Of a stretch of 64,000 nt of DNA, positions 3,378-35,627 are shown piece after piece (within the stretch, counting starts at the first letter, position 1; each line of letters begins with the position of its first letter). The DNA is taken from NCBI GenBank assembly GCA_041554135.1, contig JBFFML010000005.1:28195-92194 (forward strand), written 5' to 3'. The translations under genes and the position numbers were made by a program. This DNA is from Thermoplasmata archaeon (lineage in GTDB: Archaea; Thermoplasmatota; Thermoplasmata; UBA10834). The notes under the pieces were generated by a model, which was not told the origin of the DNA, did no database searches, and worked only from the letters and a program-made list of their open reading frames with translations.

Positions 3378-3487
3378 CCTGGTCAAAGCATCGAAATCCA
3401 GGAGCATTACATAAACTTTGGGGGTCCACCGTCCAAGGCAAAAGTAGATTTGAGCGTCAGGCAGTTACTTCGGCTGATGGTAATTGC

Positions 3488-7624: not shown

Positions 7625-7730
7625 GCTGAGGTGGCCCAGCCCGGTAAGGCGCGAGCCTGGAGCCTTGAATTGTCAAGCCCGATAGCTCGTGGCGCTCTGC
7701 GCCTCGGGAGTTCGAATCTCCCCCTCAGCG
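7625..7730 (+). tRNA. tRNA-Ser(GGA), class II, with a ~21-nt intron at 37/38; no encoded CCA
   Basis: Acceptor GCTGAGG/CCTCAGC, anticodon stem CGAGC/GCTCG, loop CT-GGA-G, long variable arm GGCGC-TCT-GCGCC, T-arm GGGAG-TTCGAAT-CTCCC. Confidence 0.85.
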
Positions 7731-9911: not shown

Positions 9912-10958
9912 ATGTCGAAGATGACGATGGCCCAGGGCGCCGGCGGAGAGCGGATGCAGGACTTCATCAAGAAGTTTGTCCTGAGTGAGTTCGAGCACGA
10001 GATCGGGGAGATACCTCTTTCGGCCCTGGACGACGCCGCAGTCGTTGACGGCATAGTTTTCACGACAGACACCTACACGGTGAAGCCGCTCTTCTTCCCT
10101 GGAGGCGACATAGGACTACTGGCCGTTGCCGGCACTGTCAATGACCTGTCCGTCATGGGCGCGTCCCCTATGGCACTCTCGTGCGCGATGATAATCGAAG
10201 AGGGATTCGAGGAGGAGAGCCTTCTCAGGATAATTAGGACCATGAGCGACGCGGCAAAGGGTGCTGACGTTAGCTTTGTCACGGGCGACACGAAGGTCGT
10301 CGAGAAAGGTGCTTGCGACGGGCTGTTCATCAACACGAGTGGAATAGGCAGGCGGTCTAGCCACTTGGACGGCAATTTGGACGCGGTTCGTTCGTCGCGG
10401 AGTTTCAAGTGGAACTGGCCAAATGATTCCGCGGTGGCTGATGGAGATGTGCTGATCACCTCCGGATCGATCGGCAACCATGGCGTCGCCTTGCTGTCGT
10501 TCAGAGAGGGCTATGGCTTCGAGACCTCTGTCCGAACGGACGCCGCCCCAATGAACCACCTGATCGAGGCAGCACTGAAGGTCGGGGGAGTTGTCGCCAT
10601 GAAGGACCCCACGAGGGGCGGCGTGGCTAACCTGCTGAACGAATGGGCTGAGAAGTCAGGCGTCGGCCTCGTCGTGAGGGAGGAGGACCTCCCTATCGAC
10701 ACGCCCGTTATGTCCGCGTGCGAGATGTTAGGGATCGACCCGTTGGAGGTGGGCAACGAAGGTAAGGTCATCCTGGCAGTTGTCCCGGAATTCGCAGATC
10801 AGGTTCTCGAAGCGATTCGATCTACACGGGAGGGCAACAACGCCAGAATCATTGGCGTGGCCTCAGGAGACATCGAAGGCGTCGTCCTGGAGACCCATAC
10901 CGGTGGGCGTCGGTTGATAGAACCGCCGATTGGCGATCCTGTGCCGAGGATCTGCTGA
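9912..10958 (+). CDS. hypE: Hydrogenase maturation carbamoyl dehydratase HypE
   Basis: AIR-synthase-like repeats and the diagnostic C-terminal PRIC motif. Confidence 0.9.
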   Translation: MSKMTMAQGAGGERMQDFIKKFVLSEFEHEIGEIPLSALDDAAVVDGIVFTTDTYTVKPLFFPGGDIGLLAVAGTVNDLSVMGASPMALSCAMIIEEGFEEESLLRIIRTMSDAAKGADVSFVTGDTKVVEKGACDGLFINTSGIGRRSSHLDGNLDAVRSSRSFKWNWPNDSAVADGDVLITSGSIGNHGVALLSFREGYGFETSVRTDAAPMNHLIEAALKVGGVVAMKDPTRGGVANLLNEWAEKSGVGLVVREEDLPIDTPVMSACEMLGIDPLEVGNEGKVILAVVPEFADQVLEAIRSTREGNNARIIGVASGDIEGVVLETHTGGRRLIEPPIGDPVPRIC

Positions 10959-13057: not shown

Positions 13058-14074
13058 TCACTCCTTCTTCTTGCGCTTCTCGGTCACCGTGCGTCTCAGC
13101 AGCGACTTCGGCAGCGTGAAGGCGTAGAAGGTCCCGAGCGGGTCCTTCACCTGCATCATCAATTCCATTATCTGCTCCTCACTTAACTTTGACTCCGAAT
13201 CCGTGATGTTCAGGAGCGAGGACAGGGCGCTCAGCATGCTCCCGCCGTGGTCCATGACGGCCTTGGTCGGGCCCATGCAGCCTCTGCACGGCATGTTCGC
13301 GTTAGGGCACATCGCGCCGCAGCCCGCCCTCGTCGCGGGCCCGATGCAGATGATCCCCTGGTCGAGCAGGCACTTCTTGGGGTCGGCCTTGATCTCATAC
13401 GACTGGTATATCTTGTCTATCCGCCGTCCCTTCTCCACGCGCTCGCGGGGACACTCGTCGCAGAGCGTCTTGTCGGACGCGATGACCGTGCCCTTGGGCG
13501 GCAGGTCGGCGCCCTCCGTGACGTGCTTGGCCACGGCGTCCACCGCCATGGCTATCAGGTTGACCGTCGGCGGGCAGCCAGGCATGAAGTAATCGACGTC
13601 CACGACCTCGTCCAGCGTCTTGACGCTGTCGTAGAACACCGGTAGCTCGAGCTCGCCCTCCGGCACCGTCGAGATCGGCTGCGGCGTGACGAAGTCGGGG
13701 TTGTCCGTGGAGGCGGTGTTCTTGTAGACGGTCTCGAAGACCTCCTTCCTGTTGGTCACGTTCGCCAGCCCAGGCGTCCCGCCGAAGCAGGCGCACGAGC
13801 CGAAGGCGATCATGATGACCGACTTCTCCCTCAGCACCTTCGCCACATGCTCGTTCTCGCTGTTCCTGATAGCGCCGTTGTAGAACGAGACGGTTATCGA
13901 CTTGTCCGGCATCGCCTCGATCTCATGGAGCTTGCCGTCGAAGCCTATGGGCCAGAACACGACCTCCGCTATGGCGTGCACGTCCAGTATCTTTGCGTCT
14001 ATGTCCAGCAGCGCGACGTCGCAGCCTCCGCAGCCCGCGCCCCAGTACTGTGCGATTTTGATCTTGTCTGCCAT
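13058..14074 (-). CDS. mvhG: F420-non-reducing hydrogenase small subunit MvhG
   Basis: Starts MADKIKIAQYWGAGCGGCDVA, preceded by GGAGGTGAG. No Tat signal. Distal FeS cysteines CPNANMPCRGC. The track ORF's N-terminal 133 aa are out-of-frame overlap with the upstream gene. Confidence 0.85.
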   Translation of the reverse strand: MADKIKIAQYWGAGCGGCDVALLDIDAKILDVHAIAEVVFWPIGFDGKLHEIEAMPDKSITVSFYNGAIRNSENEHVAKVLREKSVIMIAFGSCACFGGTPGLANVTNRKEVFETVYKNTASTDNPDFVTPQPISTVPEGELELPVFYDSVKTLDEVVDVDYFMPGCPPTVNLIAMAVDAVAKHVTEGADLPPKGTVIASDKTLCDECPRERVEKGRRIDKIYQSYEIKADPKKCLLDQGIICIGPATRAGCGAMCPNANMPCRGCMGPTKAVMDHGGSMLSALSSLLNITDSESKLSEEQIMELMMQVKDPLGTFYAFTLPKSLLRRTVTEKRKKKE

Positions 14075-14076
14075 GG

Positions 14077-14469
14077 TCAGCTCACCTCCTCTCCTGAAGA
14101 CTCGGCCCTCATCGGGACCGCCGAGTATTGCGGCGACAGGCCTTTCATGCCGACCTGCTCGATCATCCGCCACCGCTTCAGGGCTATTATGTGCCTCACT
14201 ATCTCCGGCTTCGGTATGCCCGTCAGGTCGTGGAGCTCGTGCACCGTCTTGGGCCCATCCTCCATCTGCAGTATGAGCGCGTTTCTCTCGAGCTCGACCG
14301 AGGCAGCCTTCTGCAGTATGAAGCTGTATCTCGCCTCCGTGATGACCTCTCCGAACACGTTCTCGCCCGTGGTGAGGGCGCCCTTCTTGCCGAGCAGCCA
14401 CCTCACCCTCTCGCCCTCGAGCGTCCTTAGGGCGGCCCTTATCTTGGCGTCCCTGGGAGACATGCTCAC
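14077..14469 (-). CDS. Small winged-helix-like protein coupled to mvhD/mvhG (uncharacterised)
   Basis: GPKTVHELHDLTGIPKPEIVRHIIALKRWRMIEQ resembles a wHTH. Homologous to the C-terminal half of 17965-18786. GTGA overlap with the mvhD stop (or ATG at 14463). Confidence 0.5.
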   Translation of the reverse strand: MSMSPRDAKIRAALRTLEGERVRWLLGKKGALTTGENVFGEVITEARYSFILQKAASVELERNALILQMEDGPKTVHELHDLTGIPKPEIVRHIIALKRWRMIEQVGMKGLSPQYSAVPMRAESSGEEVS

Positions 14470-14930
14470 TCACCCTCCCTCGCTATGGGCGACGGCCCCA
14501 GCTCCTCGATCGTGTCCGTGAACTCGACCATCGTCTTCTGGAACTTCTCCCCCTCGCCCGCGGATATCCACTCGAGCCTCAGCCTGCCAGGGTCGAACCC
14601 GAACTGCTGCAGCAGTATCTTCAGGAGGGCGATCCTCCTCCGCGTCCTGTAGTTGCCCCCTATGTAGTGGCAGTCCGCGGGATGGCATCCCGCCACGAGT
14701 ATGCCGTCGGCGCCCTTCTGGAAAGCCCTCAGGACGAACTCGGGGTCGACCCTCGCGGAGCACATCACCCGGATCACCCTGAAGTGCGGCGGCATCTGCA
14801 ACCGGCTGACGCCCGCGAGGTCCGCGCCTGCGTACGAGCACCAGTTGCAGCAGAACACGATTATCTTCGGCTCGAAGTCCCCGGCGTCAGTCTTCGCCTG
14901 CCCCTCCGCGTTGGGTGCCGCGCTGCTCAC
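14466..14930 (-). CDS. mvhD: MvhD ([2Fe-2S] hydrogenase-Hdr connector), copy 4
   Basis: [22 protein letters not shown] and GCHPADCHY motifs. GTG start in a GTGA overlap with the upstream stop. Confidence 0.9.
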   Translation of the reverse strand: MSSAAPNAEGQAKTDAGDFEPKIIVFCCNWCSYAGADLAGVSRLQMPPHFRVIRVMCSARVDPEFVLRAFQKGADGILVAGCHPADCHYIGGNYRTRRRIALLKILLQQFGFDPGRLRLEWISAGEGEKFQKTMVEFTDTIEELGPSPIAREGE

Positions 14931-17900: not shown

Positions 17901-17968
17901 GACTGGAGGCCCGATATGCCGCCACCCACGACCATGACCGCGCCGATCTTCTCGCCTGCCGCCATCAC
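14927..17968 (-). CDS. Double HdrA-like flavoprotein (1013 aa; two thioredoxin-reductase-like FAD modules in one chain)
   Basis: N-half: [28 protein letters not shown], inserted 2x CxxCxxCxxxC(P), CVGSRD. C-half: [13 protein letters not shown]-domain, VVGGGATGMVAALELA, CVGSRE, and a C-terminal 2x Cys4 ferredoxin. Confidence 0.85.
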   Translation of the reverse strand: MMAAGEKIGAVMVVGGGISGLQSALDLADSGFKVYLVEKQPSIGGTMAQLDKTFPTNDCAMCIMAPKLVATGRHHNIDLITNADIAIVDGQEGNFTVTVKQRAFRVDPTKCTGCGSCAQKCPIEVTDEYNEGTKVRKAIYVRYPQAVPLVYSIDPEKCIGCGICSEECKANAVDYDQKEKVLEIKVGSIILSPGFDEFNARLKGEYGYGVYKNVVTSIEFERMLSATGPYFGTVMRPSDGDIPAKIAFIQCVGSRDEQVGNEYCSGVCCMYSIKEAIIAKEHGGDIQPKIFFMDMRAFGKEFDEYYNRAQDEYGIEFVRSRVASVFEDPETKNLVVKYVEKGEPKEEEFGLVVLAVGFRPPEDAETLSRVMKFQLNKDGFCKTDVLNPVSSSRPGVFVSGAFSSPKDIPMTVAEASGAAAKAATQIASARDTLVTKKEYPAEMDITGQEPRIGVFVCHCGINIGGVVKVPSVAEYARTLPNVVYAEENLYTCSQDTQEKIKEMIKEHDLNRVVVASCTPRTHEPLFQNTIKEAGLNPYLFEMANIRDQCSWIHMHEADAATKKAKDLVRMAVAKSRLLEPLENLMIDVNQAGLVVGGGATGMVAALELAKQGVKVHLVEKEKELGGNLRRLHYLPSGEDPLEFAESLAKEVASNENITVHAGVGVKNIEGYVGNFVTTLENDEKFEHGTVIVAVGGQEYKPKGEYLYGENPNVLTLLEFKEKLKKGEVKGDSYVFIQCVGSREEGHPNCSRVCCTGTMTAAIKIKEKDPDAKVFILYRDIRTYGFREEYYKTAAEKGVTFVRFEDDVKPKVEAKGDRLVVSVTDEDTGKDIEITPDYLVLASGTRPYEGADALAPMLKVPLTKEGFFLEAHMKLRPVDFATEGVYLAGLAHGPKFLDECIGQGLASVSRAMTILSKKTLEAEGIVASLDETLCDGCGICVPTCEYKALEIIVDQKDETKKLVDVNVGLCKGCGACVGACPSGALTQKGFRDEQIVAMIDAALEDDAEKQEVRQ

Positions 17969-18786
17969 TGCTCACCTCCGATCTCGATCGTCCTGTAAAG
18001 GGGCGTGTACCCCTCCGGGTGCTCCATGGCTATCTTGCTGTTCTGCCTCAGGAGGACGATGTGCCTCAGGATCCTGTCCGTCGGCGTCTCCATGAGCATC
18101 CCGAGCTGCTTCACCGACATCGGCCTTATCCTGGCGAGCTCCAGGATCATGGCCCTCTCGAACTCCTCCTCCGTGGCCTCGTCGATGACGCCCTTGAGCT
18201 CCTCGGGGTCCAGCTTGTTGCCGTACGCGTTGCCCTTCTCGACGAGGTTCAGCTCCTTGCCGACGAGCGCCTTGAGCCTGAAGGACTGCGAGGCGTCCTC
18301 CGCGGACGCGAGCCTCGTCCTGACCATGTCGTCCTCGCGGGCCTTGCACGGCCCGAGCGCCTTGATCTGCTCGGTGAACTCCGTGACGACCTTGGAGAAC
18401 TTCTCACCCTCGGACGCGGAGACCCACTCCAGCCTCAGCCTCGCTGGGTCCACTCCCGCCTCCTCGAGGAGTTTCTTCATCAGGCCGACCCTCTTCTCGG
18501 TGTAGAAGTTGCCCGATATGTAGTGGCAGTCGCCTATGTGGCAGCCCCCGAGCAGCACGCCGTCGGCCCCGGCCTTGAACAGGTCGAGCACGAGGTGCGG
18601 GCTCACCCTGGTCGAGCACATCACCCTGACCGCGCGTATGTTCGTCGGGTACTGGTACCTGCTGACGCCGCACAGGTCCGCGCCTGCGTACGAGCACCAG
18701 TTGCAGAGGAAGCCGATTATCTTCGGCTCCCACGGGCCTTCGTGCTTCTTCTCGTGGTGTCCGCCATGGTGGTGCTTGTCCGTCAT
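17965..18786 (-). CDS. MvhD domain fused to a C-terminal winged-helix-like domain
   Basis: N-terminal [24 protein letters not shown] (MvhD). The C-terminal ~120 aa (..ILELARIRPMSVKQLGMLMETPTDRILRHIVLLRQ..) are homologous to 14077-14469. Confidence 0.75.
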   Translation of the reverse strand: MTDKHHHGGHHEKKHEGPWEPKIIGFLCNWCSYAGADLCGVSRYQYPTNIRAVRVMCSTRVSPHLVLDLFKAGADGVLLGGCHIGDCHYISGNFYTEKRVGLMKKLLEEAGVDPARLRLEWVSASEGEKFSKVVTEFTEQIKALGPCKAREDDMVRTRLASAEDASQSFRLKALVGKELNLVEKGNAYGNKLDPEELKGVIDEATEEEFERAMILELARIRPMSVKQLGMLMETPTDRILRHIVLLRQNSKIAMEHPEGYTPLYRTIEIGGEQ

Positions 18787-18789
18787 GGT

Positions 18790-20658
18790 TCACACCTCCT
18801 CGTCAAGCGCGGCCTTCGCCTCCGCGAGCAGCTGCGCGTCGGTGTAGTTCGTCATGGTTATCGCTCCCTCGGGGCATGTGGCGCCGCAGCAGCCGCAGCC
18901 CTTGCAGGCGGCGACGATCACCTCGGCGATGCCCTCGTCGTTCTTCCTCAGGGCGCCGTACGGGCAGACCGTCACGCAGGTGCCGCAGCCAGTGCACTTC
19001 GTCTCGTCGATCACGGACGTGAGCGCCTCCGACTGGACGAACCCCTTGGCCATGGGTATGGCGGCTCGCGACGCCGCTGCGCCCCCTTGGATCGCGCAGT
19101 CCGTTATGTCCGCGGGTCCCCTGCAGGTGCCGGCGACGTACACGCCGTCGGTGGCGAAGTCCACCGGCCTGAGCTTGACGTGCGCCTCGAGGAAGAAGCC
19201 CTCCTGCCCCAGCGGGACCTTCAGCATCTTGGACAGGTCGCCCGCGTCCTGCTGCGCCACCAGCGGCGTGGACAGTATCACCATGTCCACCTGCATGGTC
19301 CTCTCCATCTTCAGCGTCTCGTGGAAGTACGTGATCATCAGCTGGTCGTCCTTCATGAACACCTTCGGGGCGTTGTCGGGCACGTACCGCACGAACTTGA
19401 CCCTCTTCTCCCTGGCCTTGTTGTAGGTCAGCTCGTGCTCGATGCCGTAGGCCATGACGTCCCTGTTGAAGACCGTGACCTCGATCTTGTCCGAAGGTCC
19501 GAGGCGCACCTCCTCCGCGCCCGCGTCCCCGCGGTCCCTGCCGCGCCGTCTCCGCCTCCGCTCCATGATCTCGTCAGGTGCCTTCTGCTCCACGGGCACG
19601 GTCTCGACCACCTCGCCCTCCTTCTCCGCGATACCGAGCATGTTCTCGTAGTTGTCCACGATGTTGATCGCGTTCTTGATGGCCACGTTGCAGCAGATCC
19701 TGGAGCAGTACGACAGCTGCTGCCCCCTCGAGCCCACGCACTGTATGAAAGCCACGTTCTTCAGCTTGGGCAGGGTCTTCTTCTTGCACAGTATCTCGAA
19801 CTCGGTCAGCGTCACGACGTTCGGGTACTGGTTGTATCCGTACAGCCCTTCAGGCACGAACTCGAGCGCCCCCGTCGCCACGATGATGGTCCCGACCTTG
19901 ACCTTCTGGGCCTCCTTGTCCTTCTCCGCGATCTCCACCTCGTAGTTGCCTATGAACCCCTCTGCGGACTTGACCGTCGAGTTGAGGTGGACGGTTATCT
20001 TGTCATTCGCCTGGACCTTGTCTATCATGGGTTTGATGGTCTCGATGGCGCTCTTCTGGGTGACGAACAGGTTGTTCAGGTTCCTGACGAACCCGCCGAG
20101 CTCGGACTCCCTCTCCACGAGGTGGACCGGGAAGCCCATGTCCGCTATCGACGCCGCGGCCGTCATCCCTGACACGCCGCCGCCGATGACCAGCGCCGTC
20201 GACTCCACGTCGACCTTGGCCTCCTCCTGAGGCTCCAGCAGCCGCGCCCGCGCGACGCCCATGCGCACGAGGTCCTTCGCCTTCTTCGTCGCCGCCTCCT
20301 TCTCCTTCATATGGACCCATGAGCAGTGTTCTCTGAGGTTCACGAAGGTGAAGAGGTATTTGTTAAGTCCAGCAGCCGCGCATGTGTTCTGGAACAGCGG
20401 GGCGTGCGTCCTCGGTGTGCAGCTCGCGACGATCACCCTGTTCAGCTTGTGCTCCTTTATCGCGTCCTTGATAGCCGTCAGCCCGTCGTCCGCGCACGTG
20501 TAGAGGTTGTCAGTCGCGTAGGCGACGTCCTTCAAGGTCTTAGCATAATCCGCAACGGACGGCACGTCCACGAACCCGCCTATGTTGCTGCCGCAGTGGC
20601 ACACGAACACGCCGATCCTCGTCTCCTCGTCCTTCCTCTCGTTCTCGCTCATCCGCAA
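18790..20658 (-). CDS. HdrA-like flavoprotein, 'C-half' type (N-terminal CHCG domain + FAD + C-terminal ferredoxin)
   Basis: [36 protein letters not shown] and C-terminal CTGCGTCVTVCP / CKGCGCCGATCP. The track start is TTG; ATG at 20652 is also possible. Confidence 0.85.
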   Translation of the reverse strand: MRMSENERKDEETRIGVFVCHCGSNIGGFVDVPSVADYAKTLKDVAYATDNLYTCADDGLTAIKDAIKEHKLNRVIVASCTPRTHAPLFQNTCAAAGLNKYLFTFVNLREHCSWVHMKEKEAATKKAKDLVRMGVARARLLEPQEEAKVDVESTALVIGGGVSGMTAAASIADMGFPVHLVERESELGGFVRNLNNLFVTQKSAIETIKPMIDKVQANDKITVHLNSTVKSAEGFIGNYEVEIAEKDKEAQKVKVGTIIVATGALEFVPEGLYGYNQYPNVVTLTEFEILCKKKTLPKLKNVAFIQCVGSRGQQLSYCSRICCNVAIKNAINIVDNYENMLGIAEKEGEVVETVPVEQKAPDEIMERRRRRRGRDRGDAGAEEVRLGPSDKIEVTVFNRDVMAYGIEHELTYNKAREKRVKFVRYVPDNAPKVFMKDDQLMITYFHETLKMERTMQVDMVILSTPLVAQQDAGDLSKMLKVPLGQEGFFLEAHVKLRPVDFATDGVYVAGTCRGPADITDCAIQGGAAASRAAIPMAKGFVQSEALTSVIDETKCTGCGTCVTVCPYGALRKNDEGIAEVIVAACKGCGCCGATCPEGAITMTNYTDAQLLAEAKAALDEEV

Positions 20659-21957
20659 TCACGCCCCTCCTGACTGGACGAGCGCCTCGACGGCCTTCGC
20701 CGCCGCGCTCGATCCCTGCGCGACCGATTCCGGTATGTCCGCGGGGCCTGCCGCGTAGCCCGCGAGATATATGCCTGGGACGACTGTCCTGCACGGGTCC
20801 AGCACACGGTCCGCCGCCTCGAGGAAGCCGAACTCGTCGGCCTTGATGCCGAGCATCTTGGCGACCTCCAAGGTCTCCTTCCTCGGCACGAGGGTCGTCG
20901 CCAGGACGACCATGTCGAACTCCTCGGACTGCTGCTTGCCCCCAACGTCGTACACTACGACGGGGTTCTGGTTGTCCGGGTTCTGCTGCACCGTCGCGTC
21001 GGAGTTGACGTACCTCACGCCGTAGTCGCGCTTGGCCCGTTCGACGTACTCGAAGAAGCCCTTCGCGCAGGCGCGCATGTCCTTGTAGAATATGACCGAC
21101 TCGATGTCATCGTAGTGCTCCCTGGCCAGCATGGCCTCCTTGGTCGAGTGCATGCAGCACACGGCGCAGCAGTACGGGTGCCCGACCTGCGGGTTCCTCG
21201 AGCCGACGCACTGGATGAACGCCATCTTCTTCGGACGCTCCTCGTCCGACCTCCTCTTTATGTGCCCATGGGTCGGCCCCGCGGCGTTTATCATCCGCTC
21301 GTACTCCATCGCGGTGAAGACGTTCGGATACTTGCCGTAGCCGTACTCGCTCGCGGATGTGGGGTCCCAGACATCGTAGCCCGTCGCGACGACTATCGCC
21401 CCGACCTCTATCTCGAGCATCTGGTCCTTCATCTCGTAGTCGATCGCCTCGCGGGCGCACACCTTCTTGCAGTTCCCGCACTTGTCCTTCGTGAGCTTGA
21501 TGCAGTTCTCCTTGTCGATCGTCATGACCCTGGGGACCGCCTGCATGAACGGCACGTAGATGGCCTTCCTGTTCTTCAGCCCCATCTCGAACTCGTCAGG
21601 GACCTTCACGGGGCACTTCTCGAGGCACTCGCCGCAGCCAGTGCACTTGTTCTCATCGACGTACCGCGCCTTCTTGAGAACCTTCACCTTGAACTCGCCA
21701 GCCTTCCCCTCGATTCCAACGACCTCCGAATACGTGATGACGTTCGTGTTCGGATGGCCGAAGCAATCCGCCATCTTGGGCGCGAGAATACATATCGAAC
21801 AGTCGTTCGTCGGGAAGGTCTTGTCCAGCTGTGCCATCCTGCCTCCTATGCTCGGAGACTTCTCGACCAGATGGACAATGATCCCCTTGTCCGCGAGGTC
21901 CAGAGCGGCCTGTATGCCCGCGACCCCGCCTCCAATCACCATTACTGACTTCTCCAT
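20659..21957 (-). CDS. HdrA-like flavoprotein, 'N-half' type (FAD + inserted ferredoxin; no CHCG domain, no C-terminal ferredoxin)
   Basis: [48 protein letters not shown] and CVGSRN. Its stop abuts the next gene. Confidence 0.85.
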   Translation of the reverse strand: MEKSVMVIGGGVAGIQAALDLADKGIIVHLVEKSPSIGGRMAQLDKTFPTNDCSICILAPKMADCFGHPNTNVITYSEVVGIEGKAGEFKVKVLKKARYVDENKCTGCGECLEKCPVKVPDEFEMGLKNRKAIYVPFMQAVPRVMTIDKENCIKLTKDKCGNCKKVCAREAIDYEMKDQMLEIEVGAIVVATGYDVWDPTSASEYGYGKYPNVFTAMEYERMINAAGPTHGHIKRRSDEERPKKMAFIQCVGSRNPQVGHPYCCAVCCMHSTKEAMLAREHYDDIESVIFYKDMRACAKGFFEYVERAKRDYGVRYVNSDATVQQNPDNQNPVVVYDVGGKQQSEEFDMVVLATTLVPRKETLEVAKMLGIKADEFGFLEAADRVLDPCRTVVPGIYLAGYAAGPADIPESVAQGSSAAAKAVEALVQSGGA

Positions 21958-22104
21958 TCACAACCCCTCCAAAGAGTGTCTTTGTGGTATCGCTCCTCTA
22001 CATTCACGCAGACGCGGTCCTCACCCGTCCGTGAGTCCTCGCCCCCTGTCGAACTGCCCTTTTCCGTAACTCCTACTCTCTATTATCTGTTTCGTTGACC
22101 GGCC

Positions 22105-22154
22105 GCGGGGCCCCCGGGGGTCGAAATCCGTCCATCGCGCCCCCCGGGGCCGTC
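22105..22154 (-). terminator. GC-rich hairpin directly after the stop of the Cys4 mini-protein gene (terminator or processing structure)
   Basis: GGCCCCCGGGGG (22109-22120) pairs with CCCCCCGGGGCC (22140-22151) at 11 of 12 positions, with a 19-nt loop. Confidence 0.35.
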
Positions 22155-22165
22155 CCGTTTCGTCC

Positions 22166-22588
22166 TCAGGTCACGGCCTTGCCCTTCTTCAGCACCTGCT
22201 TGACGTCCTTGTCCTTCTTGATCTCGGTCACCTTGACCTTGAACGGCACCTTCTTCCTGGCCTGCAGCACCTCGCTCGAGAACCTCTGGCAGTTGGGGTA
22301 TGTGCACGGCGAGCACTTCTTGTCCTTGCACGCCAGCTCGATCAGCACGAGCCTGTCGCGTGTGTCGTCGGGCTTAACCACCGGCTTCTTGACCTCGAAC
22401 ATCTTGGTCATCTTGGTCTCGAAGGGCACCTTCTTGGGCTTCATCTCCCTGACGAACCTCTGGCAGTTAGGGTACGTGCACGGCGAGCACTTCTGGTCCT
22501 TGCATGACAGCTCGATCAGCAGGAACCTCTGGTCGGCGTCGTCCTTCTTCTTCTTTTTCTCCTCGCTATCCACTTTCTTCGGTGACAT
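22166..22588 (-). CDS. Lys-rich mini-protein with two tandem Cys4 repeats (uncharacterised)
   Basis: Two ~58-aa repeats, each (F/L)(L/V)LIEL(S/A)CKD(Q/K)KCSPCTYPNCQRF...KKVPF. It lies 21 nt downstream of the MvhD-HdrCB fusion on the same strand. ATG start. Confidence 0.55.
   Translation of the reverse strand: MSPKKVDSEEKKKKKDDADQRFLLIELSCKDQKCSPCTYPNCQRFVREMKPKKVPFETKMTKMFEVKKPVVKPDDTRDRLVLIELACKDKKCSPCTYPNCQRFSSEVLQARKKVPFKVKVTEIKKDKDVKQVLKKGKAVT
22280..22521. repeat. Intragenic direct repeat: two 68-nt copies (22280-22347 and 22454-22521), period 174 nt
   Basis: By-eye alignment shows roughly 90 percent identity between the copies, while the flanking codons have diverged. Confidence 0.8.
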
Positions 22589-22609
22589 CTTAACATTCCT
22601 TCGTTCGCT

Positions 22610-24208
22610 CTACTCCAATGACTCTGCAATCGCCACGCTGATGTCCTTTATGGGTATGTCTACCTGCTCCTTCGGCACGCCCTCAGTCTTGTTGTCCCTG
22701 GCGCAAGCGAGGTGTATCAGGCATTTGTAGCAGCCGGTGACCAGGCACTCCGCCCCCGTCCTCTTCGCCTCTCTCAGCCTGTCGAGCTGCAGCCTCCGCG
22801 AGATCTCGTCGCATGTCGCCCAGGCGCTCACGCCGCAGCAGAGCGCCTTGTCCCTCGTGTTCTCCATCTCGACGATCTCCGTGCCGTCAGCCGCCTTGAG
22901 CGCGTCCCTGGGCTGGTCGTATATTCCGAGGTGCCTGCCCAGCCGGCAGGAATCCTGGAACGTCAGCTTCCTCGCGTTCGGCTTGAACTTGACCTTGCCC
23001 TCCTTTATCAGGTCGTCGACGTACTCCGATATGTGCACCATCTCGAAGTCCAGGTCGCCCATGAGGTCCTGGTAGTCCATGTCGAAGGTCCTCAGGCACT
23101 CGGGGCATGAGAAGACCACCTTCTTCGCGCCGGAGTCCTTGATCATGTCGATGTTCTTCTTCATGAGCTTCTGGAGGCCGAGCTCGTCCCCCGTCCAGTT
23201 GAGGTCGTGTCCGCAGCAGACCTCGTCGTTCCTGACGACGGGCGTGACGCCGGCCTTGTTCATTATCCTCACGACCGACCTCGGGATCTCCGTCAGTTCA
23301 AGGTCCCTGTCGCTGAGCATGTTGTCGAAGTACGATACGCACCCCGTGAAGTACAGCACCTCGCCCTTCTCGGCCACCTTCAGGTCCGGGGTGACCCAGC
23401 CGAGCCTGTCCTGCTTGAAATCCCCGTGCGCCTGTATCCTCATGAGGGCGTGCATCTGGCCCCCTTGGCTGCAAACGGCCTCGTTGTCCATCTTCGACGC
23501 CTCGACGCGCAGGCCCCTGATGAAGCCCGAGTAGTCCACCTTGTAAGGGCACATCGAGTTGCACTGCTCGCACGTGATGCATGTCCAGATGTCCCTGTTC
23601 GTGGCGAACGTTTCCGCCTGGCCCTCCGTAGCCTTGAGGACGATGGTCCTCGGGGCGAAGTCGGTGTTGTACTTAGCCACCGGGCACACCGTCGTGCACT
23701 TGCCGCACTCGACGCAGTCGAACGCGCCGGTGTCCTCTATGAGCTGGTCTACCTTGTCCTTCAGCTTCGATCGGTCGTACGGCAGCCTCGGTATCTTGGG
23801 CATGGGGTTCGGCCCGAGCCCGCGTATCTGCTCGGTGAACTCCTTCATCGTGGCCGCGAACTTCTGGCCTTCCGAGGCGGATATCCATTCGAGGCGCATC
23901 CTCTCCTGGCCTATGCCCACGATGTCGAGGAGCTCCTTCGTCATGTTCATCCGCTTCTCCGCCTCGACGTTGCCTGATATGTAGTGGCAGTCGCCTATGT
24001 GGCACCCAGCGACGAGGACGCCGTCGGCTCCGAGCTCGAACGCTCGGAGCACGAAGGTGGGCTCGATCCTCCCCGAGCACATCACCCGTATCACCCTCGC
24101 GTTGGGCGGATACTGCATGCGCCCCACGCCCGCGAGGTCCGCGCCCGCGTACGAGCACCAGTTGCAGCAGAACGCGACTATGTGTGGTTCGAATCTCGGC
24201 TCGGTCAT
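22610..24208 (-). CDS. Triple fusion MvhD + HdrC-like (2x[4Fe-4S]) + HdrB-like (2x CCG domain)
   Basis: [24 protein letters not shown], then [12 protein letters not shown] / [12 protein letters not shown], then FTGC..VCCGH..SCPEC and DSC..LCCGV..TGCYKC. ATG at 24208 sits in an ATGA overlap with the upstream stop. The track's N-terminal 125 aa are an out-of-frame artefact. Confidence 0.85.
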
Positions 24209-27200
24209 GTCCCCGCCTCCTGCTTCTCCTCGTCCCTCGCGAGCGCCGCCTCGATCATCGTCATTATCTGGTCTGTCCTGAAGTGCTTCGGGCGGATCGC
24301 CCTTGTGCAGCACTCGACCGCGCACGAGCCGCATCCCTTGCAGAGCGCCTCGTAGATGCGCGACTTGAATACGCCAGGGGAAACCTCCTCGAGTCTCGGG
24401 GCGCCGTACTCGCACAGCTCCTCGCACCTGCCGCAGCCGACGCACTTGTCCTCGTCGACCACGCTGACGACGCCCTCGGCCTCTATGGACGGCTTGGACA
24501 GGACGGTGTTGACCCTGGCCGCCGCGGCGAGCGCCTGGGATATGCTCTCGTCGATCAGTCTCGGCGAGTGCGCCAACCCGCATAGGAACACGCCATCCGT
24601 GGCGAAGTCCACTGGCCTGAGCTTCATGTGCGCCTCGAGGAAGTACCCCTCCTTGTTCTGCGGCACCTTCAGCAGCTGCGCCAGCTCCTTGTTGTCAGGG
24701 TTCGGGTGCACCGCGGCGTTGAGCACGACATATGTGGGCCTGATCGTGATGGTCTCCTCGATGAACTGCTCGTCGACTTCGACCACGAGGTCGTCGCCGT
24801 CGGCCCGCACGCTCGGCGGCGATGATGGGTCGTATCGCAGGAAGATAACTCCCTGCTTCGCCGCCTCGTTGTAGTTGTCCTCCGCGAAACCGTATGTGCG
24901 TATGTCTCTGAACAGGATGTAGACGCTCGTCCCGGGATGCTCCTTCTTGATCCTCAAGGCGTTGGCCATCGCCGTCGAGCAGCATATCCTCGAGCAGTTC
25001 GGGTGCTCATCGTCCCTCGAGCCCACGCACTGTATGATCACCACGCTCTTCGCGTCCAGCTTACCGGTCGCGATCATTTCGCCGAGGTCGGTCTGCCTGA
25101 TCACGCGCGGGTGCTCCCCGTAAAGGTACTCCTTTGGCTCGTACTCGATCCCGCCGGAGGCGACGACGATTGCTCCGTGCCTTATCTCCTCGCCGCTCCT
25201 CAGCCTGGTCTCGAAGTTGCCGATGTAGCCCTTTATCTCCTCGACGGAGTCCTCGAGGTGCACCTTGATCTTATCGTGATCGTGGATGTCTTTCTTCAGC
25301 GCGGCCAGGGTCTCCTGCGGGTCGATCCCCGCGAGGGTGTGGTATATCCTGCGCAGATGCCCACCGAGCTCCCTCTCCTTCTCGACGATATGTACCTCGA
25401 ACCCGGCCTTCGCGATCTCCAGCGCCGCCGTCATGCCGCTCAGGCCCCCGCCTATCACGAGCGCGACCGGCGTGACGGGTATCTTCGGCTGGGGCAGCGC
25501 CTCCAGCCGGGCGGCCTTCGCAACGGCCATGCGCACGAGGTCCTTGGCCTTCTCCGTGGCCGCCTCGGGCTCGTTGCGGTGGACCCACGAGCACTGGTCG
25601 CGTATGTTCGCCATGTCGAAGAGGTACTTGTTCAGGCCGGCCTCCCGGACGGTGTTCTGGAACAGCGGCTCGTGCGTCCTCGGCGTGCAGCTCGCGACGA
25701 CCACGCGGTTAAGGTCGTGTTCCTTGATCATGTCCCTTATCTTCTTCTGCGTGTCCTGGGAGCAAGTGTACAGGTTCTGCTCGGCGTATACGACGCCTGG
25801 AAGCTTGGACGCGTACTCCATGACCTCGGGTACGTCCACGACCGAGCCGATGTTGATGCCGCAGTGGCACACGAACACGCCTATGCGCGGCTCCTGGCCC
25901 GTGGCGTCCCTCTCCTCGGGGTACTCCTTCGCGGTCACGAGCGTCCCCCTCTCATCGGAGAGCAACGCGGCCGCCTTGCCCGCGGCCCCGCTCGCCTGGG
26001 CGACCGAGTCCGGGATGTCCTTCGGGCCAGAGAACGCCCCGCAGACGTAGATCCCTGGCACCGAAGTATCCACAGGAGCGAGCTCGTCGGTCTCGCAGAA
26101 GCCGTAGGCGTTGGCTTTCACGCCCAGCGTCTTCGCGAGCGCGCGGGCTGACTCGGGCGGCGTCGCGCCCGCCGACAGGACGACTATGTCGAACTGCTCC
26201 TCCTTTATGTCCGCCCCGTCTATGAAGCCCAGGATGAGCGAGCCCGTGTCCTCGTCCTGCTGGACCTTTGATATGCGGTTGTTCCTGAACACCCTGACGC
26301 CGTACTCCGTCTCCGCGCGGTGGAGGTACTCCTCGAACTCCTTGCCGAACGCGCGCGTGTCCATGAAGAATATCGTCGTCTTCAACCCGGGCACGTGCTC
26401 CTGCGCTATGACCGCCTGCTTGAGGGCGGCCATGCAACAGTACGACGAGCAATAGGTGTTGGGCGTCTGGGCGTCCCTGGAGCCGACGCATTGTATGAAC
26501 GCCACCTTCTGGGGCACGTCCCCGTCGGAAGGCCTGATGACATGTCCCTCCGTGGGGCCGGACGCGCTCAGCATCCTCTCGAACTCGATGTTGCTTACGA
26601 CGTTGGGGAACACCCCGTGGCCGTACATGGCCTTCCTCGAGACGTCGTAGACGTCGTATCCAGGCGCGAGTATGATCGCGCCCACCTCGATAGTCTCCTC
26701 TATGTCGGGCTCCATCGAGTACTTTATCGCGTCCGCTTCGCAGAACTTCTCACAAATGCCGCAGCCTATGCACAGTCCCCTGTCGATCGTGTACACGAGC
26801 GGGACCGCCTGCGGGAACGGGACGTATATCGCCTTCGCGGGCGCGAGGTCTCGGTCGAAGGCGCTCGTCCCCTCGATCGGGCAATGCTCGGCGCAGACGC
26901 CGCAGCCCGTGCACCTGTCCTCCAAGATGTACCTCGAGTGCCTGGTTATCGTGACATTGAACCGTCCGGCCTGTCCCTCGACCTTCTTCAGCTCGGCGTT
27001 CGTGAGCATATTGATGTTCTCGTGCCTGCCGGTGGCGACTAGCTTGGGCGAGAGGATGCACATCGAGCAGTCGTTCGTCGGGAAGGTCTTGTCCAGCTGG
27101 GCCATCGTGCCGCCGATGCTGGGCGTGCCCTCCAGGAGATATACCTTGTATCCGGAATCGGCGAGGTCCAATGCGGCCTGCATGCCCGCGGGCCCCCCGC

Positions 27201-27240
27201 CGACGATTAGCACCGCGCCCACTTTGCCGTTCTCAGCCAT
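24205..27240 (-). CDS. Double HdrA-like flavoprotein (1011 aa), paralogue of 14927-17968
   Basis: Same half-domain order: [16 protein letters not shown] + [12 protein letters not shown] + inserted ferredoxin, then [12 protein letters not shown] + [16 protein letters not shown] + C-terminal [11 protein letters not shown] / [11 protein letters not shown]. Confidence 0.85.
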
Positions 27241-31692: not shown

Positions 31693-32775
31693 TCAACCCT
31701 TTCTTCGCCTGTATCTGTACGATATGTAGCAACTACCTTCGCGGGACACCATGCAAGGACCGATGGGGGCGTCTGGCGTGCAGCTCACGCCGAACAGCGG
31801 GCACTCCTCACTCGTTATTATGCCTCTCAGCATCTCCCCGCATCTGCAGCCTTCGGGCTCCTCATACTCCGTGTCAAGGACCTCTTCGAGATGGTCGCCA
31901 TGCCTCCTCCTCGCGTCGAAGGCAGAGAGCTCGTCCTTCAGCTCAAGACCGCTGCCGGGTATCACGGGGAATCCCCTCCAGCCGACGTCCGATGCGACGA
32001 ACGCCTCGTGCATCGCCCGGATCGCGCTTGGGTTGCCGTCCCTGCGGACCACCCGCGTGTACTCGTTCTGAACCTCCGCCCTCCCCTCGGATACCTGCTT
32101 CGCCAGCATGTAGACCGCCATCAGGAGATCGAGCGGCTCGAACCCCGCGACCACCTGTGGTATGCGGTGCTCGATGGACAAGAACTCGTACGGCGCCGTG
32201 CCTATGATCGTGCTGACGTGCCCTGGCTGTATCATGCCGTCCAGCTTCACCTCGCCCATCGAGACGATGGCCTTCAACGCGGGAGGCACGGTCCTGTGAA
32301 GGCTCAGCACGGAGAAGTTGCCGGGTGGTGCGGAGAGCAACGCCGTCGCCGTCGTGGGCGCGGTCGTCTCGAACCCTATGCCCACGAACACGACGTCTTC
32401 ACTTGTCCGTCTGGCCATCTGGACGGCGTCGTCGACGCCGAAGACTATCCTGACATCGGCCCCCTCGGTCCTGACGTCGTTCAGGGAGCCGCTCCTGCCA
32501 GGGACCTTCATCAGGTCGCCGAACGCTGCCAGCGTCACACCGGCCCTGGCGAGCGCGAGCGCCTCCTCGATCTCCTTCGGGGGCGTCACGCACACCGGAC
32601 AGCCAGGGCCTTGCCGGATGTCCACGCCGACGTCCCTGAACTCCTGGTCGAGCCCGAACCTGATGAGAGTGTCCTGGTGCGTCCCGCACACGTGCATCAG
32701 CGTGATGTCCAGCCGCATGGCGCGAAGCTCGTCCATGATCCTGCGGGACATCTCCTTGTCTCTAAGCCTGTACAT
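31693..32775 (-). CDS. hypD: Hydrogenase maturation factor HypD
   Basis: MHVCGTHQD, GPGCPVCVTP and the C-terminal CxxC..C motifs. Confidence 0.9.
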   Translation of the reverse strand: MYRLRDKEMSRRIMDELRAMRLDITLMHVCGTHQDTLIRFGLDQEFRDVGVDIRQGPGCPVCVTPPKEIEEALALARAGVTLAAFGDLMKVPGRSGSLNDVRTEGADVRIVFGVDDAVQMARRTSEDVVFVGIGFETTAPTTATALLSAPPGNFSVLSLHRTVPPALKAIVSMGEVKLDGMIQPGHVSTIIGTAPYEFLSIEHRIPQVVAGFEPLDLLMAVYMLAKQVSEGRAEVQNEYTRVVRRDGNPSAIRAMHEAFVASDVGWRGFPVIPGSGLELKDELSAFDARRRHGDHLEEVLDTEYEEPEGCRCGEMLRGIITSEECPLFGVSCTPDAPIGPCMVSREGSCYISYRYRRRKG

Positions 32776-33142
32776 CTGGAACGACCATCCTTATGTCCCT
32801 GATCACGCACTCCCGCCCGTCGACGATCTTGGCGCCACCTCCACACTTGGGACACTCCAGTATCGGGACGGCCCCGTGTGGCGCGTCGCTCTCGGGTGAC
32901 ACCTGTCCCTCGAAACCGCACGGGCATTCGATCCTCCCGGGTCTTGTGCGCAGGTCCAGCTTCGCATTCTCCAGCAACGTGTCCTTCGACAGTATGCCGA
33001 AGGCGAACTGCAGCTGCTCCTTGCCGAGCATCGTGAACTCCCCGATCTCCACGGTCACGCCGTCGATGCGGAGAGCGTCCCTCTTACGCGCCTCGTCGAT
33101 TATGCTCTTGACTATCTCGCTCATGACTGAGAATTCGTGCAT
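32762..33142 (-). CDS. hypA: Hydrogenase nickel-insertion protein HypA
   Basis: MHEFS N-terminus and a Zn site C.C..CPKCG. Confidence 0.85.
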   Translation of the reverse strand: MHEFSVMSEIVKSIIDEARKRDALRIDGVTVEIGEFTMLGKEQLQFAFGILSKDTLLENAKLDLRTRPGRIECPCGFEGQVSPESDAPHGAVPILECPKCGGGAKIVDGRECVIRDIRMVVPDVQA

Positions 33143-33145
33143 GCT

Positions 33146-33373
33146 CTACGCCCCAGCGTCTCCTTGAGAAAGCATCTCCCTGAAGAGTTCGAGCGTCTTC
33201 TCGGCCTCGTCCTTGTCCAGGATCTCTATCGCGTAGCCCGCATGCACTATCACATAGTCGCCCACGCGCGCATCCACGAGCGATAGGTTGACCGACCTCT
33301 TGACGCCTCCGAAGTCAGCTTCTCCCATGACGCCTTCGATGGATTTTATCTCGGCTGGAACGGCTAGACACAT
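33146..33373 (-). CDS. hypC: Hydrogenase assembly chaperone HypC
   Basis: MCLAVPA N-terminus; 75 aa. Confidence 0.85.
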   Translation of the reverse strand: MCLAVPAEIKSIEGVMGEADFGGVKRSVNLSLVDARVGDYVIVHAGYAIEILDKDEAEKTLELFREMLSQGDAGA

Positions 33374-33408
33374 CGAGCCGGTGTTATGAGCGGTCCGTTC
33401 ATAAAGTT

Positions 33409-35622
33409 TTAGCCGAGGAGGTTTCCCGCGATGGCGTTCTGTCCCACTGATATCCCACCGTCACCGTTCGGTACGCGCACGTGTCCGGCGAACCCCAGGC
33501 CGCGGCTCGTGACGACCGCCTCGACCCACGAGGCGATCGGGCTGCTGTACGACACCCCCCCTGACAGGCCCACCGTCTTCGCGCCTTCATCGTCTGCGAC
33601 GTCGCACGCCCTCTCCGTCAGCGCCGTCACCAGCGCCTTCACGAAAGACACCGCCGCGTCTGCCCTCTGCGCGTCGGACCCGATGCGAGTGCCCAGCAGC
33701 CGCTCGAACATGGGCGCGGTCTTCGCGAACTCAAGGGCGCCCCTTCGGCCGAACTCTACATCGTAGCTCTGCGTCGCCTCGCCGGCTTCAAGCCACCTCT
33801 CCAGCTTGATCGCCGGCTCGCCCTCGTAGGTTCGTTTGCAGCATATGCCGAGTATGCAGGAGACGGCGTCGAGCACCCTGCCCATGCTCGAGGTGGTCGT
33901 GCTCGTCTTCATCATCTTGGACAACACGTCGACTTCGCCCTCGTCTGCATATGACGGCTCCGACCCCAGCTTCAATTGTATCGCGGTCACCACTCGCCTC
34001 GGGTTCACCACTGCCCTGTCGCCTCCGAGGAGAGGGATGCCTTCGAGGGTGCAGTGTCTCGTGTATGATGAGTAGTCGCCGAACAGCGTCTCCCCGCCCC
34101 AGGACGTGCCGTCGTCCCCGTAGCCGGTCCCGTCCCATGTGAGGCACGCCATGGCGTCCTTCAGGCCGCGATCTATCATCAGAGACGCGAGGTGGGCATG
34201 GTAGTGCTGTGTCTCGATCATTTGACAGCCGTGTTCCTTCGCTAGCCTCTTCGCCATTATCCTCGTCGAGTATCTCGGGTGCCTGTCGAGCGCCACCGCC
34301 TCGACATCCTTCGTCCCGAGCAGTCCCGAGAGGTGATGGATCGCCTCACCCAGATACTGCAGCGTCGGGTGCTGCTGAGCCTCGCCTATGTACTGGGTGA
34401 GGAAAATCTCGCCGTTCCTGGTGATCGAACCGGTGACGTCCCACTGCGCGCCCACGCCGATGACCGTCCTTCGGTGGTTCGCTTCGAGGGGGACGGGCAC
34501 GAACCCCCGCGACTTCCGAAGGAAGACCGCCCTGCCGGACATCGTCTTCATCACGCTGTCGTCGCATCTGTGTATTATTCTCCTGTCGTGCATCAGATAG
34601 CAGTCGAGGCCCAGGTCGAACGCCTTCGAACTCTCTATCGCCATGGGCTCTCCCGGAGGATTCGCGGAGGTCATGACGACTGCGTCGGCCTCGAGATGCG
34701 TGAACAGGAGCAGATGCGCAGCCGAGTACGGTAGCATCACGCCGACGTTGCCCAGGCGCGGGGAGACTTCACTCAGGTCGTCGGCCGCCTCTTCCCGCTT
34801 CCTCAGGAGGACTATGGGCCTCTGAGGGGATGTCAGGAGCTCCTCTTCCTTCTCGCCAACGATAGCGTATCTTCGCACGGTCGCGAGGTCCCTCGCCATG
34901 ATCGCGTATGGTTTGTCCCCTCTCCGGTACAGTCCCCGCAGCCTCGAGGTGTGGGCGAGCGCACAGACGATGTGCATCCCACCCCAACCTTTGATGGCAC
35001 CGACCTCCCCGGAGTCTATCCTGGAGGCGAACGACCTGAACGGGTCTCCAGACACCGTCCTGCGGTCGCGGTCATACAGAGTATATCTAGGCCCGCACTC
35101 GGGGCATGAGATGGTCTGCGCGTGGAACCTCCTATCCGATGGCGAGGCGTACTCGCTCTCGCAGGAGTCACACATGGGGAAATCATACATGGCAGTGCGG
35201 GCGCGGTCGAAAGGTACGTCCGATATGATCGTGAACCTAGCCCCGCACTCCGTGCAGTTCGTGAAAGGGAACATGCTCCTCTTGTTGCCTGGCTCGGAGA
35301 AGTCGCGCGCGCAAGCGTCGCAGATAGCCGTGTCCGTGGGTATCAGCGAGACCCTCTTCCCCTCTCTGCTCTGTACGATGGTGAAGTCCTCATAGGCGCC
35401 CTTCGATTCCTCTATCTGCACAAGGTCGATCCTGGCCAGCGCCGGGAGGGCCTCTCGCAGCCTTCTGAGGAACTCCTCCGGGTCGCGGTCTATCACGATC
35501 TCCACATTGGAACCGTTGTTGAGGACGTATCCTCTGAGCCCCATCTCCTTGGCTACCCTGTACACAGTCGGCCTGAAGCCTACGCCCTGCACAATTCCGA
35601 ATATGGTTATCTTCATCATCAT
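33409..35622 (-). CDS. hypF: Carbamoyltransferase HypF
   Basis: Acylphosphatase domain (GIVQGVGFRP), two CxxC..CxxC zinc fingers, and YrdC/Kae1-like regions. Confidence 0.9.
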   Translation of the reverse strand: MMMKITIFGIVQGVGFRPTVYRVAKEMGLRGYVLNNGSNVEIVIDRDPEEFLRRLREALPALARIDLVQIEESKGAYEDFTIVQSREGKRVSLIPTDTAICDACARDFSEPGNKRSMFPFTNCTECGARFTIISDVPFDRARTAMYDFPMCDSCESEYASPSDRRFHAQTISCPECGPRYTLYDRDRRTVSGDPFRSFASRIDSGEVGAIKGWGGMHIVCALAHTSRLRGLYRRGDKPYAIMARDLATVRRYAIVGEKEEELLTSPQRPIVLLRKREEAADDLSEVSPRLGNVGVMLPYSAAHLLLFTHLEADAVVMTSANPPGEPMAIESSKAFDLGLDCYLMHDRRIIHRCDDSVMKTMSGRAVFLRKSRGFVPVPLEANHRRTVIGVGAQWDVTGSITRNGEIFLTQYIGEAQQHPTLQYLGEAIHHLSGLLGTKDVEAVALDRHPRYSTRIMAKRLAKEHGCQMIETQHYHAHLASLMIDRGLKDAMACLTWDGTGYGDDGTSWGGETLFGDYSSYTRHCTLEGIPLLGGDRAVVNPRRVVTAIQLKLGSEPSYADEGEVDVLSKMMKTSTTTSSMGRVLDAVSCILGICCKRTYEGEPAIKLERWLEAGEATQSYDVEFGRRGALEFAKTAPMFERLLGTRIGSDAQRADAAVSFVKALVTALTERACDVADDEGAKTVGLSGGVSYSSPIASWVEAVVTSRGLGFAGHVRVPNGDGGISVGQNAIAGNLLG

Positions 35623-35627
35623 GTCCT

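Follow-up and report, generated by a model that had tools for sequence, protein, structure and literature searches.

A duplicated Cys4-knuckle protein encoded between two Hdr modules in Thermoplasmata, a candidate metal-binding partner of a non-methanogenic Hdr/Mvh assembly

Flavin-based electron bifurcation of the Hdr/Mvh type is well understood in methanogens, and homologous gene clusters are widespread in non-methanogens. For these non-methanogenic clusters, the high-potential substrate and the electron partners are still being sought, a gap that has been stated explicitly for the Thermoplasmata orders basal to Methanomassiliicoccales (bioRxiv 10.1101/2020.03.09.984617). The 64,000-nucleotide (nt) stretch of a Thermoplasmata archaeon genome analyzed here (contig JBFFML010000005.1, positions 28,195 to 92,194; the window, from whose first letter all positions are counted) harbors such a cluster and, where two Hdr modules meet, a gene for a 140-amino-acid (aa) protein rich in cysteine and lysine. 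What does this protein do there? We refer to its open reading frame (ORF) as T, to the MvhD-HdrC-HdrB fusion gene before it as F, and to the neighbors in the cluster as E, G, H, I and J; orthologous and paralogous loci are given as L numbers. T is a conserved, lineage-specific component that is co-inherited with an insertion in the HdrA-like protein H, which makes it a concrete candidate for one of the partners sought. As it is small and easily expressed, it also offers an experimental handle on non-methanogenic Hdr biology.

Gene T occupies positions 22166..22588 on the minus strand, as established from the ORF listing and homologue searches. Its ATG lies 21 nt past the F stop codon (22610-22612), with a Shine-Dalgarno (SD)-like AGGA about 10 nt 5′ of it. 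The original prediction, made from the letters alone, had described a 140-aa ORF at this distance and on the same strand as the fusion gene, built of two repeats of about 58 aa, and both descriptions hold. Repeat 1 (aa 20-77; 22358..22531, minus strand) and repeat 2 (aa 78-135; 22184..22357, minus strand) score 79 and 78 bits, respectively, against a profile built from single repeats (E ~1e-25). Each contains the sequence (L/V)IEL(S/A)CKDxKCSPCTYPNCQRF, with the Cys spacing C-x4-C-x2-C-x4-C; the last spacing had been miscounted as x5. The first Cys knuckle, C29-x4-C34-x2-C37-x4-C42 (aa 29-42; 22463-22504, minus strand), is followed by KKxPFETKMTKMFEVKKP, and the second, C87-C92-C95-C100 (aa 87-100; 22289-22330, minus strand), by KKxPFKVKVTEI. 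The protein is Lys-rich (31 K), with a computed isoelectric point (pI) of 9.7 and a net charge of +18, and its C-terminus reads ...KKGKAVT.

T is a genuine gene under purifying selection, which acts most strongly on the Cys cores. The aligned homologues show no or almost no variation at the eight Cys, the two Pro, the Tyr and the Gln-Arg that follows the last Cys. Among 46 distinct orthologues, the ratio of nonsynonymous to synonymous substitution rates (dN/dS) is 0.29 overall and 0.14 in both Cys cores, against 0.43-0.50 for the parts of the repeats outside the cores, while the Lys/Glu-rich N- and C-terminal tails are unconstrained. The GC-rich window does contain many long antisense ORFs, such as 22095-22730 on the plus strand, and T could in principle be another spurious ORF or a non-coding repeat of a high-GC genome. 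This reading is effectively refuted, and we give it next to no weight: homologues number in the hundreds, their motif residues are invariant, dN/dS in the T frame is well below 1, the position of the gene is conserved, and the SD-like AGGA precedes it. A chance origin of the Cys motif is far too improbable.

The DNA of the two cores (22280-22347 and 22454-22521) is identical at 63 of 68 positions (93%), close to the 90% or so first estimated, and the resemblance had been attributed to purifying selection or gene conversion. Only the first is needed. We compared the codons of the two cores in 47 distinct loci, setting the fraction of shared codons against the GC content of third codon positions (GC3). 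Where GC3 exceeded 0.9, the fraction was 0.8-0.9; where it was 0.7 or less, most values fell between 0.2 and 0.6, and at the low-GC3 loci the core codons differ although the core peptides are near-identical. Repeat 1 and repeat 2 share 0.625 of their core codons within a genome, hardly more than the 0.566 shared between genomes. Gene conversion was therefore rejected, and the DNA identity of the cores in the window is the result of protein constraint and GC3 codon bias. The duplication itself is old, as each repeat has a flank of its own, PFETRMTKMFEVKKP for repeat 1 and PFKVKVTEI for repeat 2, that orthologues preserve.

The T family is undescribed and restricted to the Thermoplasmata lineage. 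We found 213 relatives among 5.8e9 proteins, the best 120 of which are 62-91% identical to T and 119-157 aa long. A profile search added 114 further small proteins, for a total of more than 300 homologue clusters, and an exhaustive HMMER scan of 1.84e9 representatives gave 25 family clusters at 50% identity. A 2076-aa protein (P0141) returned by the representative search is a spurious repeat-protein match. All homologues are annotated as hypothetical, and every named one comes from a Thermoplasmata or Thermoplasmatota metagenome-assembled genome (MAG). The closest named relatives include UBA10834, RBG_19FT_COMBO_56_21, RBG_13_57_23 and UBA9653, that is, the GTDB order UBA10834, which has been described as non-methanogenic yet hdr-retaining; the proposal for these basal Thermoplasmata lineages is that an unknown disulfide or sulfur compound serves as the acceptor (bioRxiv 10.1101/2020.03.09.984617). 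We scanned 185,579 GTDB species genomes and obtained 71 family loci; the only one outside Thermoplasmata-type MAGs lies on a contig assigned to ‘Candidatus Paceibacterota bacterium’ (L069, DATEYD010000314.1). This contig carries a Thermoplasmata mini-paralogue with flanks near-identical to those of L065, and was probably placed in the wrong bin.

The signature E-x2-C-x4/5-C-x-P-C-T-Y-P-N-C-Q-R occurs in proteins of three kinds: those with two repeats are 125-150 aa long, those with one repeat 64-82 aa, and the mini-proteins 48-50 aa. The mini-form reads MPxxVxKWNxxYExIETSCxxxxxCTPCTYPNCQR...FGK, with a first Cys spacing of x5, frequently starts with GTG or TTG, and is present together with T in many MAGs. 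The signature is a new Cys4 motif, absent from Pfam, NCBIfam and the PDB, and a literature search for the motif string returned just an unrelated plant paper. The whole family is basic (pI about 9.5, net charge about +14, 19-23% K+R). No fusion to a larger protein was found among the matches from 5.8e9 sequences, so that in every case T stands alone as a small protein.

The genomic position of T links it to the Hdr/Mvh genes. The minus-strand cluster runs HdrA (700 aa), HdrC, HdrB, MvhD, E, F and T, and continues after T with G, H, I, J (1013 aa), MvhD, (HTH)-MvhG and MvhA. Gene E (24205..27240, minus strand) encodes a 1011-aa double HdrA-like flavoprotein and lies upstream of F in the same operon. 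Gene F (22610..24208, minus strand) encodes the 532-aa MvhD-HdrC-HdrB fusion, identified by NCBIfam and by the Pfam domains FlpD, Fer4_8 and two CCG; its start Met was chosen to match the orthologues (531 aa), and its two CCG motifs are complete. T is always followed by G (20659..21957, minus strand), which encodes a 432-aa protein that resembles the N-terminal half of HdrA, with a flavin adenine dinucleotide (FAD) domain and an inserted Fer4 domain. A co-occurrence analysis with MvhD-CCG fusions had been suggested, and the linkage to Hdr clusters indeed persists: about 50 GTDB species loci, along with many metagenome contigs, preserve the order F-T-G-H-I-J, even at T identities as low as about 42-43%. 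The arrangement is the same when MvhD and HdrCB are encoded separately and when T has a single repeat, and both the two-repeat and the single-repeat form are placed between a CCG (HdrB-like) gene and a split pair of HdrA-like genes; at one locus (L049), T directly follows E without F. In several other lineages, T and F overlap by 4-17 nt at the F stop codon, which, together with the 21-nt distance in the window, suggests that the synthesis of T and F is coupled. A second F-G-H set, closely spaced and lacking T, is present in some genomes (L059:4323-8627, L082:2471-6694).

The spacer 3′ of T is almost always 110-230 nt long. An alignment of 15 orthologous, divergent T-G spacers revealed only two conserved elements, a GGAGG before the G start and the block TCAACGAAAC-AGATAATA-N14-TTACGGAA (22062..22098, minus strand; TATA at 22081-22088). 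The block lies about 125 nt upstream of gene G, and between it and the GGAGG there is a leader of about 100 nt. We presume that it is the promoter, with a B recognition element (BRE) and a TATA box, of the downstream G-H-I-J-K operon. As this promoter-like block lies between T and G, T is the terminal gene of the upstream operon, and the proposal that it ends the MvhD-HdrCB sub-operon can be extended: T is the last gene of a hdrA-hdrC-hdrB-mvhD-hdrA′-mvhD::hdrCB unit. The T-less F-G-H sets lack both this promoter-like spacer and the insertion in H that is described below. The strong GC hairpin noted after the gene is real (22109..22151, minus strand; arms 22109-22120 and 22140-22151), with a stem of about 11 bp and a loop of 19 nt, 15 nt past the T stop, and a stable hairpin right after the T stop recurs in many orthologous loci. 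However, the whole T-G spacer in the window folds no better than shuffled sequences (z = -1.4), and a consensus scan of the hairpin found no T-run and nothing terminator-like.

The feature that changes together with T is found in H, a 622-aa HdrA-like protein (18790..20658, minus strand) with a CHCGxNIGG N-domain, an FAD domain and a C-terminal 2x[4Fe-4S] region. After its CSRICC motif, H in the window carries an insertion of about 59 aa (aa 335-393; 19480..19656, minus strand), VPVEQKAPDEIMERRRRRRGRD followed by an acidic tail, in which a hexa-arginine (R6) tract (19543-19560, minus strand) forms part of an invariant ERRRRRRG. In all T-linked H proteins, CSRxCC is directly followed by about 50 inserted residues, reading (I/V)PVExKAxDEIxERRRRRRG and then an acidic stretch. 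In a tally that includes 80 metagenome loci seeded with T-less H, T lies upstream of 43/43 distinct insertion-bearing H proteins and of 0/4 insertion-less ones, without exception (Fisher p = 5.6e-6, with no correction for phylogeny). The insertion-less set consists of the four distinct sequences with enough upstream sequence; six more had too little. Alignments of T-linked with T-less proteins showed no T-specific feature in F or G, and a search with the T repeat profile found no T-like sequence within the neighboring proteins. The H insertion is the sole neighbor feature that covaries with T, and the CCG protein F has none.

We favor, tentatively and with a probability of roughly 0.45, the reading of T as a metal-binding accessory or electron-transfer subunit of the Hdr/Mvh assembly, judged from sequence and gene context. 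Four equally invariant Cys within 14 residues, in a module of as few as 48 aa, point to a metal site (Fe-S or Zn). So small a domain would probably not remain stable in the reducing archaeal cytoplasm without a metal. The four Cys of each knuckle would ligate one metal center, most plausibly an Fe-S cluster, with structural Zn or Fe(Cys)4 as possible alternatives. The operon position, the translational coupling, the synteny and the fact that T and the H insertion are inherited together favor a dedicated Hdr/Mvh subunit or adaptor; the gene neighborhood and the co-inheritance are those of a subunit of the complex, from which we infer physical association. T may thus be a dedicated accessory or electron-transfer subunit of an assembly of multiple HdrA proteins, MvhD, HdrCB and [NiFe]-hydrogenase, made together with F as the final gene of the F operon. 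It would probably dock on the split HdrA-like flavoprotein formed by G and H, of which H carries the hexa-arginine/acidic insertion. The original prediction of a thiol/disulfide or metal partner is best kept in its second half, the Cys knuckle making metal the better reading, whereas the thiol substrate lacks positive support.

The type of metal center is suggested by the only database resemblance of T that recurs, found in two independent libraries: the [4Fe-4S] loop of RnfB and CFeSP (PF04060). T matches PF04060 in Pfam with E = 0.0015 and 18.7 bits, and PRK07118 in NCBIfam with E = 0.003 through the same RnfB-type local loop; PF04060 is also a precomputed match for 4 T homologues. The shared loop is C-x2-C-x-[YF]-P-x-C with an aromatic residue three positions on (CSPCTYPNCQRF in T, CGQCGYPGCRPY in RsxB). 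In T, however, the fourth Cys lies 4 residues upstream, whereas in PF04060 it lies 16 residues downstream, and T lacks the LP..NC..CG signature and is free-standing, duplicated and very basic. Membership of T in PF04060 was rejected: the score is sub-threshold, an hhalign comparison with an RnfB FeS-domain alignment (RsxB of E. coli with three RnfB chains from the PDB) yielded a probability of 14% over 18 columns, and the pattern C-x2-C-x4-C-x16-C is absent, with not one repeat carrying a further Cys after the third loop Cys. No PF04060-type motif was returned by a regular-expression search of all retrieved loci.

Several observations weigh against the metal-binding subunit. The PF04060 score falls below the gathering cutoff (18.7 vs 23 bits), only 4/55 repeat units reach E < 0.1, and the hhalign probability is the 14% given above. 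The co-occurrence of T and the R6 insertion may stem from a single ancestral event, and the negatives are few (four distinct, with the six others too short upstream). Throughout the family, the proteins are very basic, which sets them apart from the acidic classical ferredoxins and is typical of Zn proteins that bind nucleic acids or polyanions. A two-repeat paralogue that lies among unrelated genes (L051) and the entire mini-paralogue subfamily are found outside Hdr contexts. Finally, the two AlphaFold2 runs disagree: full-length T (alignment of 26 sequences) was modeled as all-beta with a mean confidence (pLDDT) of 49, and a single repeat (72 sequences) as helical with a pLDDT of 67. As the models contradict each other, neither was used.

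Searches for known families confirmed that T belongs to none that is recognizable, as the original prediction had already stated: Pfam, NCBIfam, the PDB and Foldseek gave no assignment. Sequence and profile searches of the PDB with T returned no meaningful match, and a Foldseek search against the PDB gave 0 matches. The bacterial-type 2x[4Fe-4S] ferredoxins were rejected, as T has no Fer4-family match while its neighbors match strongly. Thioredoxin-like CxPC oxidoreductases were rejected for lack of a thioredoxin-family match and on account of the size of the module, merely about 45-55 aa, and DsrC/TusE for lack of a Pfam or NCBIfam match at E <= 1 and for the Cys-free, unconstrained C-terminus of T. 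Zinc ribbons, Zn knuckles and rubredoxins gave no significant profile match; only sub-threshold Pfam matches to Zn families were seen (IBR at 0.009, Zn_Tnp_IS91 at 0.07, DUF3268 and L37ae).

DsrC nevertheless inspired a functional proposal for this gene, namely that T is a protein-borne redox substrate. By analogy, T disulfides or sulfane sulfur would be reduced at the two non-cubane clusters of the F CCG domains, and T would replace the heterodisulfide of coenzymes M and B (CoM-S-S-CoB) as the high-potential acceptor in non-methanogens. Like DsrC and TusE, T is a small, highly conserved, Cys-containing protein genetically linked to a CCG-domain (HdrB/D-like) protein; it is co-transcribed right after F, sometimes overlapping it, and both CCG motifs of F are intact. 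Its C-x-P-C element resembles redox-active dithiols, and its closest named relatives are MAGs of the order UBA10834. DsrC carries two redox Cys on a flexible C-terminal arm. T has no such arm and its tails are not conserved; its 2 x 4 Cys sit in internal, rigid, Pro-rich knuckles of 14 residues, where four equally invariant Cys look more like a metal site, and it shows no DsrC/TusE or thioredoxin-fold match. The CCG proteins of the T-less F-G-H modules are equally intact, the mini-paralogues and L051 have no CCG neighbor, T of L049 follows E directly with no F, and the covarying feature lies in H only and not in F. We consider a substrate role unlikely, and the DsrC analogy is not supported as it was stated, given the missing DsrC match and C-terminal Cys arm and the H-specific covariation.

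It is possible to widen this proposal and see in T the missing partner for HdrA-type bifurcation without CoM-S-S-CoB, either as a dithiol/disulfide (or sulfane-sulfur) acceptor at the F CCG clusters or as an Fe-S adaptor. In the adaptor form, T would be a basic, two-center protein of new fold that acts in trans, replaces the inserted ferredoxin domain absent from H, and docks on the hexa-arginine/acidic insertion of H. We regard this broader claim, too, as improbable. A familiar counterpart for such wiring is MvhB (present in PDB 9sw6), together with other ferredoxins of Hdr/Mvh operons: they are likewise dedicated small Cys-rich proteins encoded inside mvh/hdr clusters, with electron wiring from HdrA to a partner as a plausible role for T as well. 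They differ in that T has no CxxCxxCxxxCP motifs and no Fer4 match and is basic rather than acidic.

The charge of the family brings in a different kind of protein. T could be a small basic Zn(Cys)4 knuckle protein that binds nucleic acid or another polyanion, with DNA, RNA, membranes or an acidic ferredoxin as candidate targets, and that serves as a regulator, tether or recruiter of acidic partners while carrying no electrons itself. The uniformly basic composition (pI and K+R content as given above) and the low-complexity Lys-rich tails would fit, although these tails are not conserved. The R6 tract in the covarying H insertion points in the same direction, as do an extended MvhD whose L082/L083 homologue matches HTH_20, the ArsR-type HTH_5 gene of the orthologous cluster, the weak Pfam matches to IBR, Zn_Tnp_IS91 and DUF3268, and the existence of the mini-paralogue as an independent conserved gene of 48 aa. 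Small archaeal zinc-finger micro-proteins are known, for instance the haloarchaeal C(P)XCG proteins. T resembles them in size (48-140 aa across the family), Cys4 sites, basic character and free-standing genes, but its motif is not made of CPXCG pairs and it is strictly linked to a redox enzyme cluster. A clear match to a Zn-ribbon ribosomal or DNA-binding family would have spoken against the original prediction, and none is significant in Pfam, NCBIfam, the PDB or Foldseek; the Cys spacing is unlike that of zinc ribbons or CCHC knuckles. Moreover, a translationally coupled last gene of an operon that is strictly co-inherited with enzyme subunits fits a subunit better than a regulator. On balance, such a binding protein seems rather unlikely, and we retain the metal-binding Hdr/Mvh subunit as the preferred reading.

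The context of the mini-paralogue suggests one more possibility. In 16/16 loci (L060-L081, e.g., L064:9977-10126), the mini-paralogue lies in the spacer after iscS-iscU-pyrD-pyrK, convergent with a leuA-like (2-isopropylmalate-synthase-like) gene. A T-type knuckle just downstream of these genes could mean that T is a maturation or assembly factor, a transient Fe-S (or Fe/S) carrier delivering to the unusual Hdr-like clusters, and the window cluster is flanked by HypE, HypD, HypF and HypB. However, the mini-paralogue is about 150-220 nt from pyrK and may be its own transcription unit, T has no similarity to the known carriers Nfu, A-type and Mrp/NBP35 in Pfam and NCBIfam, and the same cluster types occur in Hdr modules that lack T. 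We therefore find a maturation role very unlikely. The neighborhood of pyrK also invites a comparison of motifs. The compact [2Fe-2S] loops of PyrK, SdhB and plant-type ferredoxins follow the pattern C-x4-C-x2-C-xn-C. The first three Cys of T have the same x4, x2 spacing, and the mini-paralogue with x5, x2 lies beside pyrK, the PyrK motif of L064 being C-x4-C-x2-C-x7-C. The loops are Gly-rich, whereas T is Pro-rich with its fourth Cys 4 residues away, and the similarity is one of spacing alone.

Other features of the cluster can be noted beside these results. The supercluster is flanked on one side by a HypE-like AIRS protein (9912-10958, plus strand) and on the other by HypD, HypF and HypB (31693-36326, minus strand). 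In some lineages, gene G is fused N-terminally to a GltD/NADPH-dependent-oxidoreductase-like domain (L004:10628-13384, 918 aa; L105:10-2052, 680 aa), which suggests that pyridine nucleotides feed into the G/H module. Gene I (17965-18786, minus strand), the MvhD homologue that follows H, is about 130 aa longer than a normal MvhD, with a C-terminal extension past FlpD, and the precomputed HTH_20 match is found in its L082/L083 counterpart (L082:11809-12597). In orthologous loci, the ArsR-type HTH_5 gene precedes mvhG; in the window, a single 471-aa ORF (13058-14473, minus strand) spans the two orthologue genes, which encode a 125-aa HTH_5 protein and a 337-aa MvhG. This ORF may be an HTH_5/MvhG fusion or an in-frame upstream extension, and only its Oxidored_q6 domain (aa 148-311) matches Pfam. 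With the basic T, the R6 tract and the helix-turn-helix (HTH) matches, several elements that look like those of nucleic-acid-binding proteins occur within one redox cluster. Elsewhere in the window, and in keeping with its archaeal origin, Rfam identified two tRNA genes of about 105 nt that were missed by ARAGORN, which found no tRNAs at all (3275-3378, minus strand; 7625-7730, plus strand), whose length is probably due to introns.

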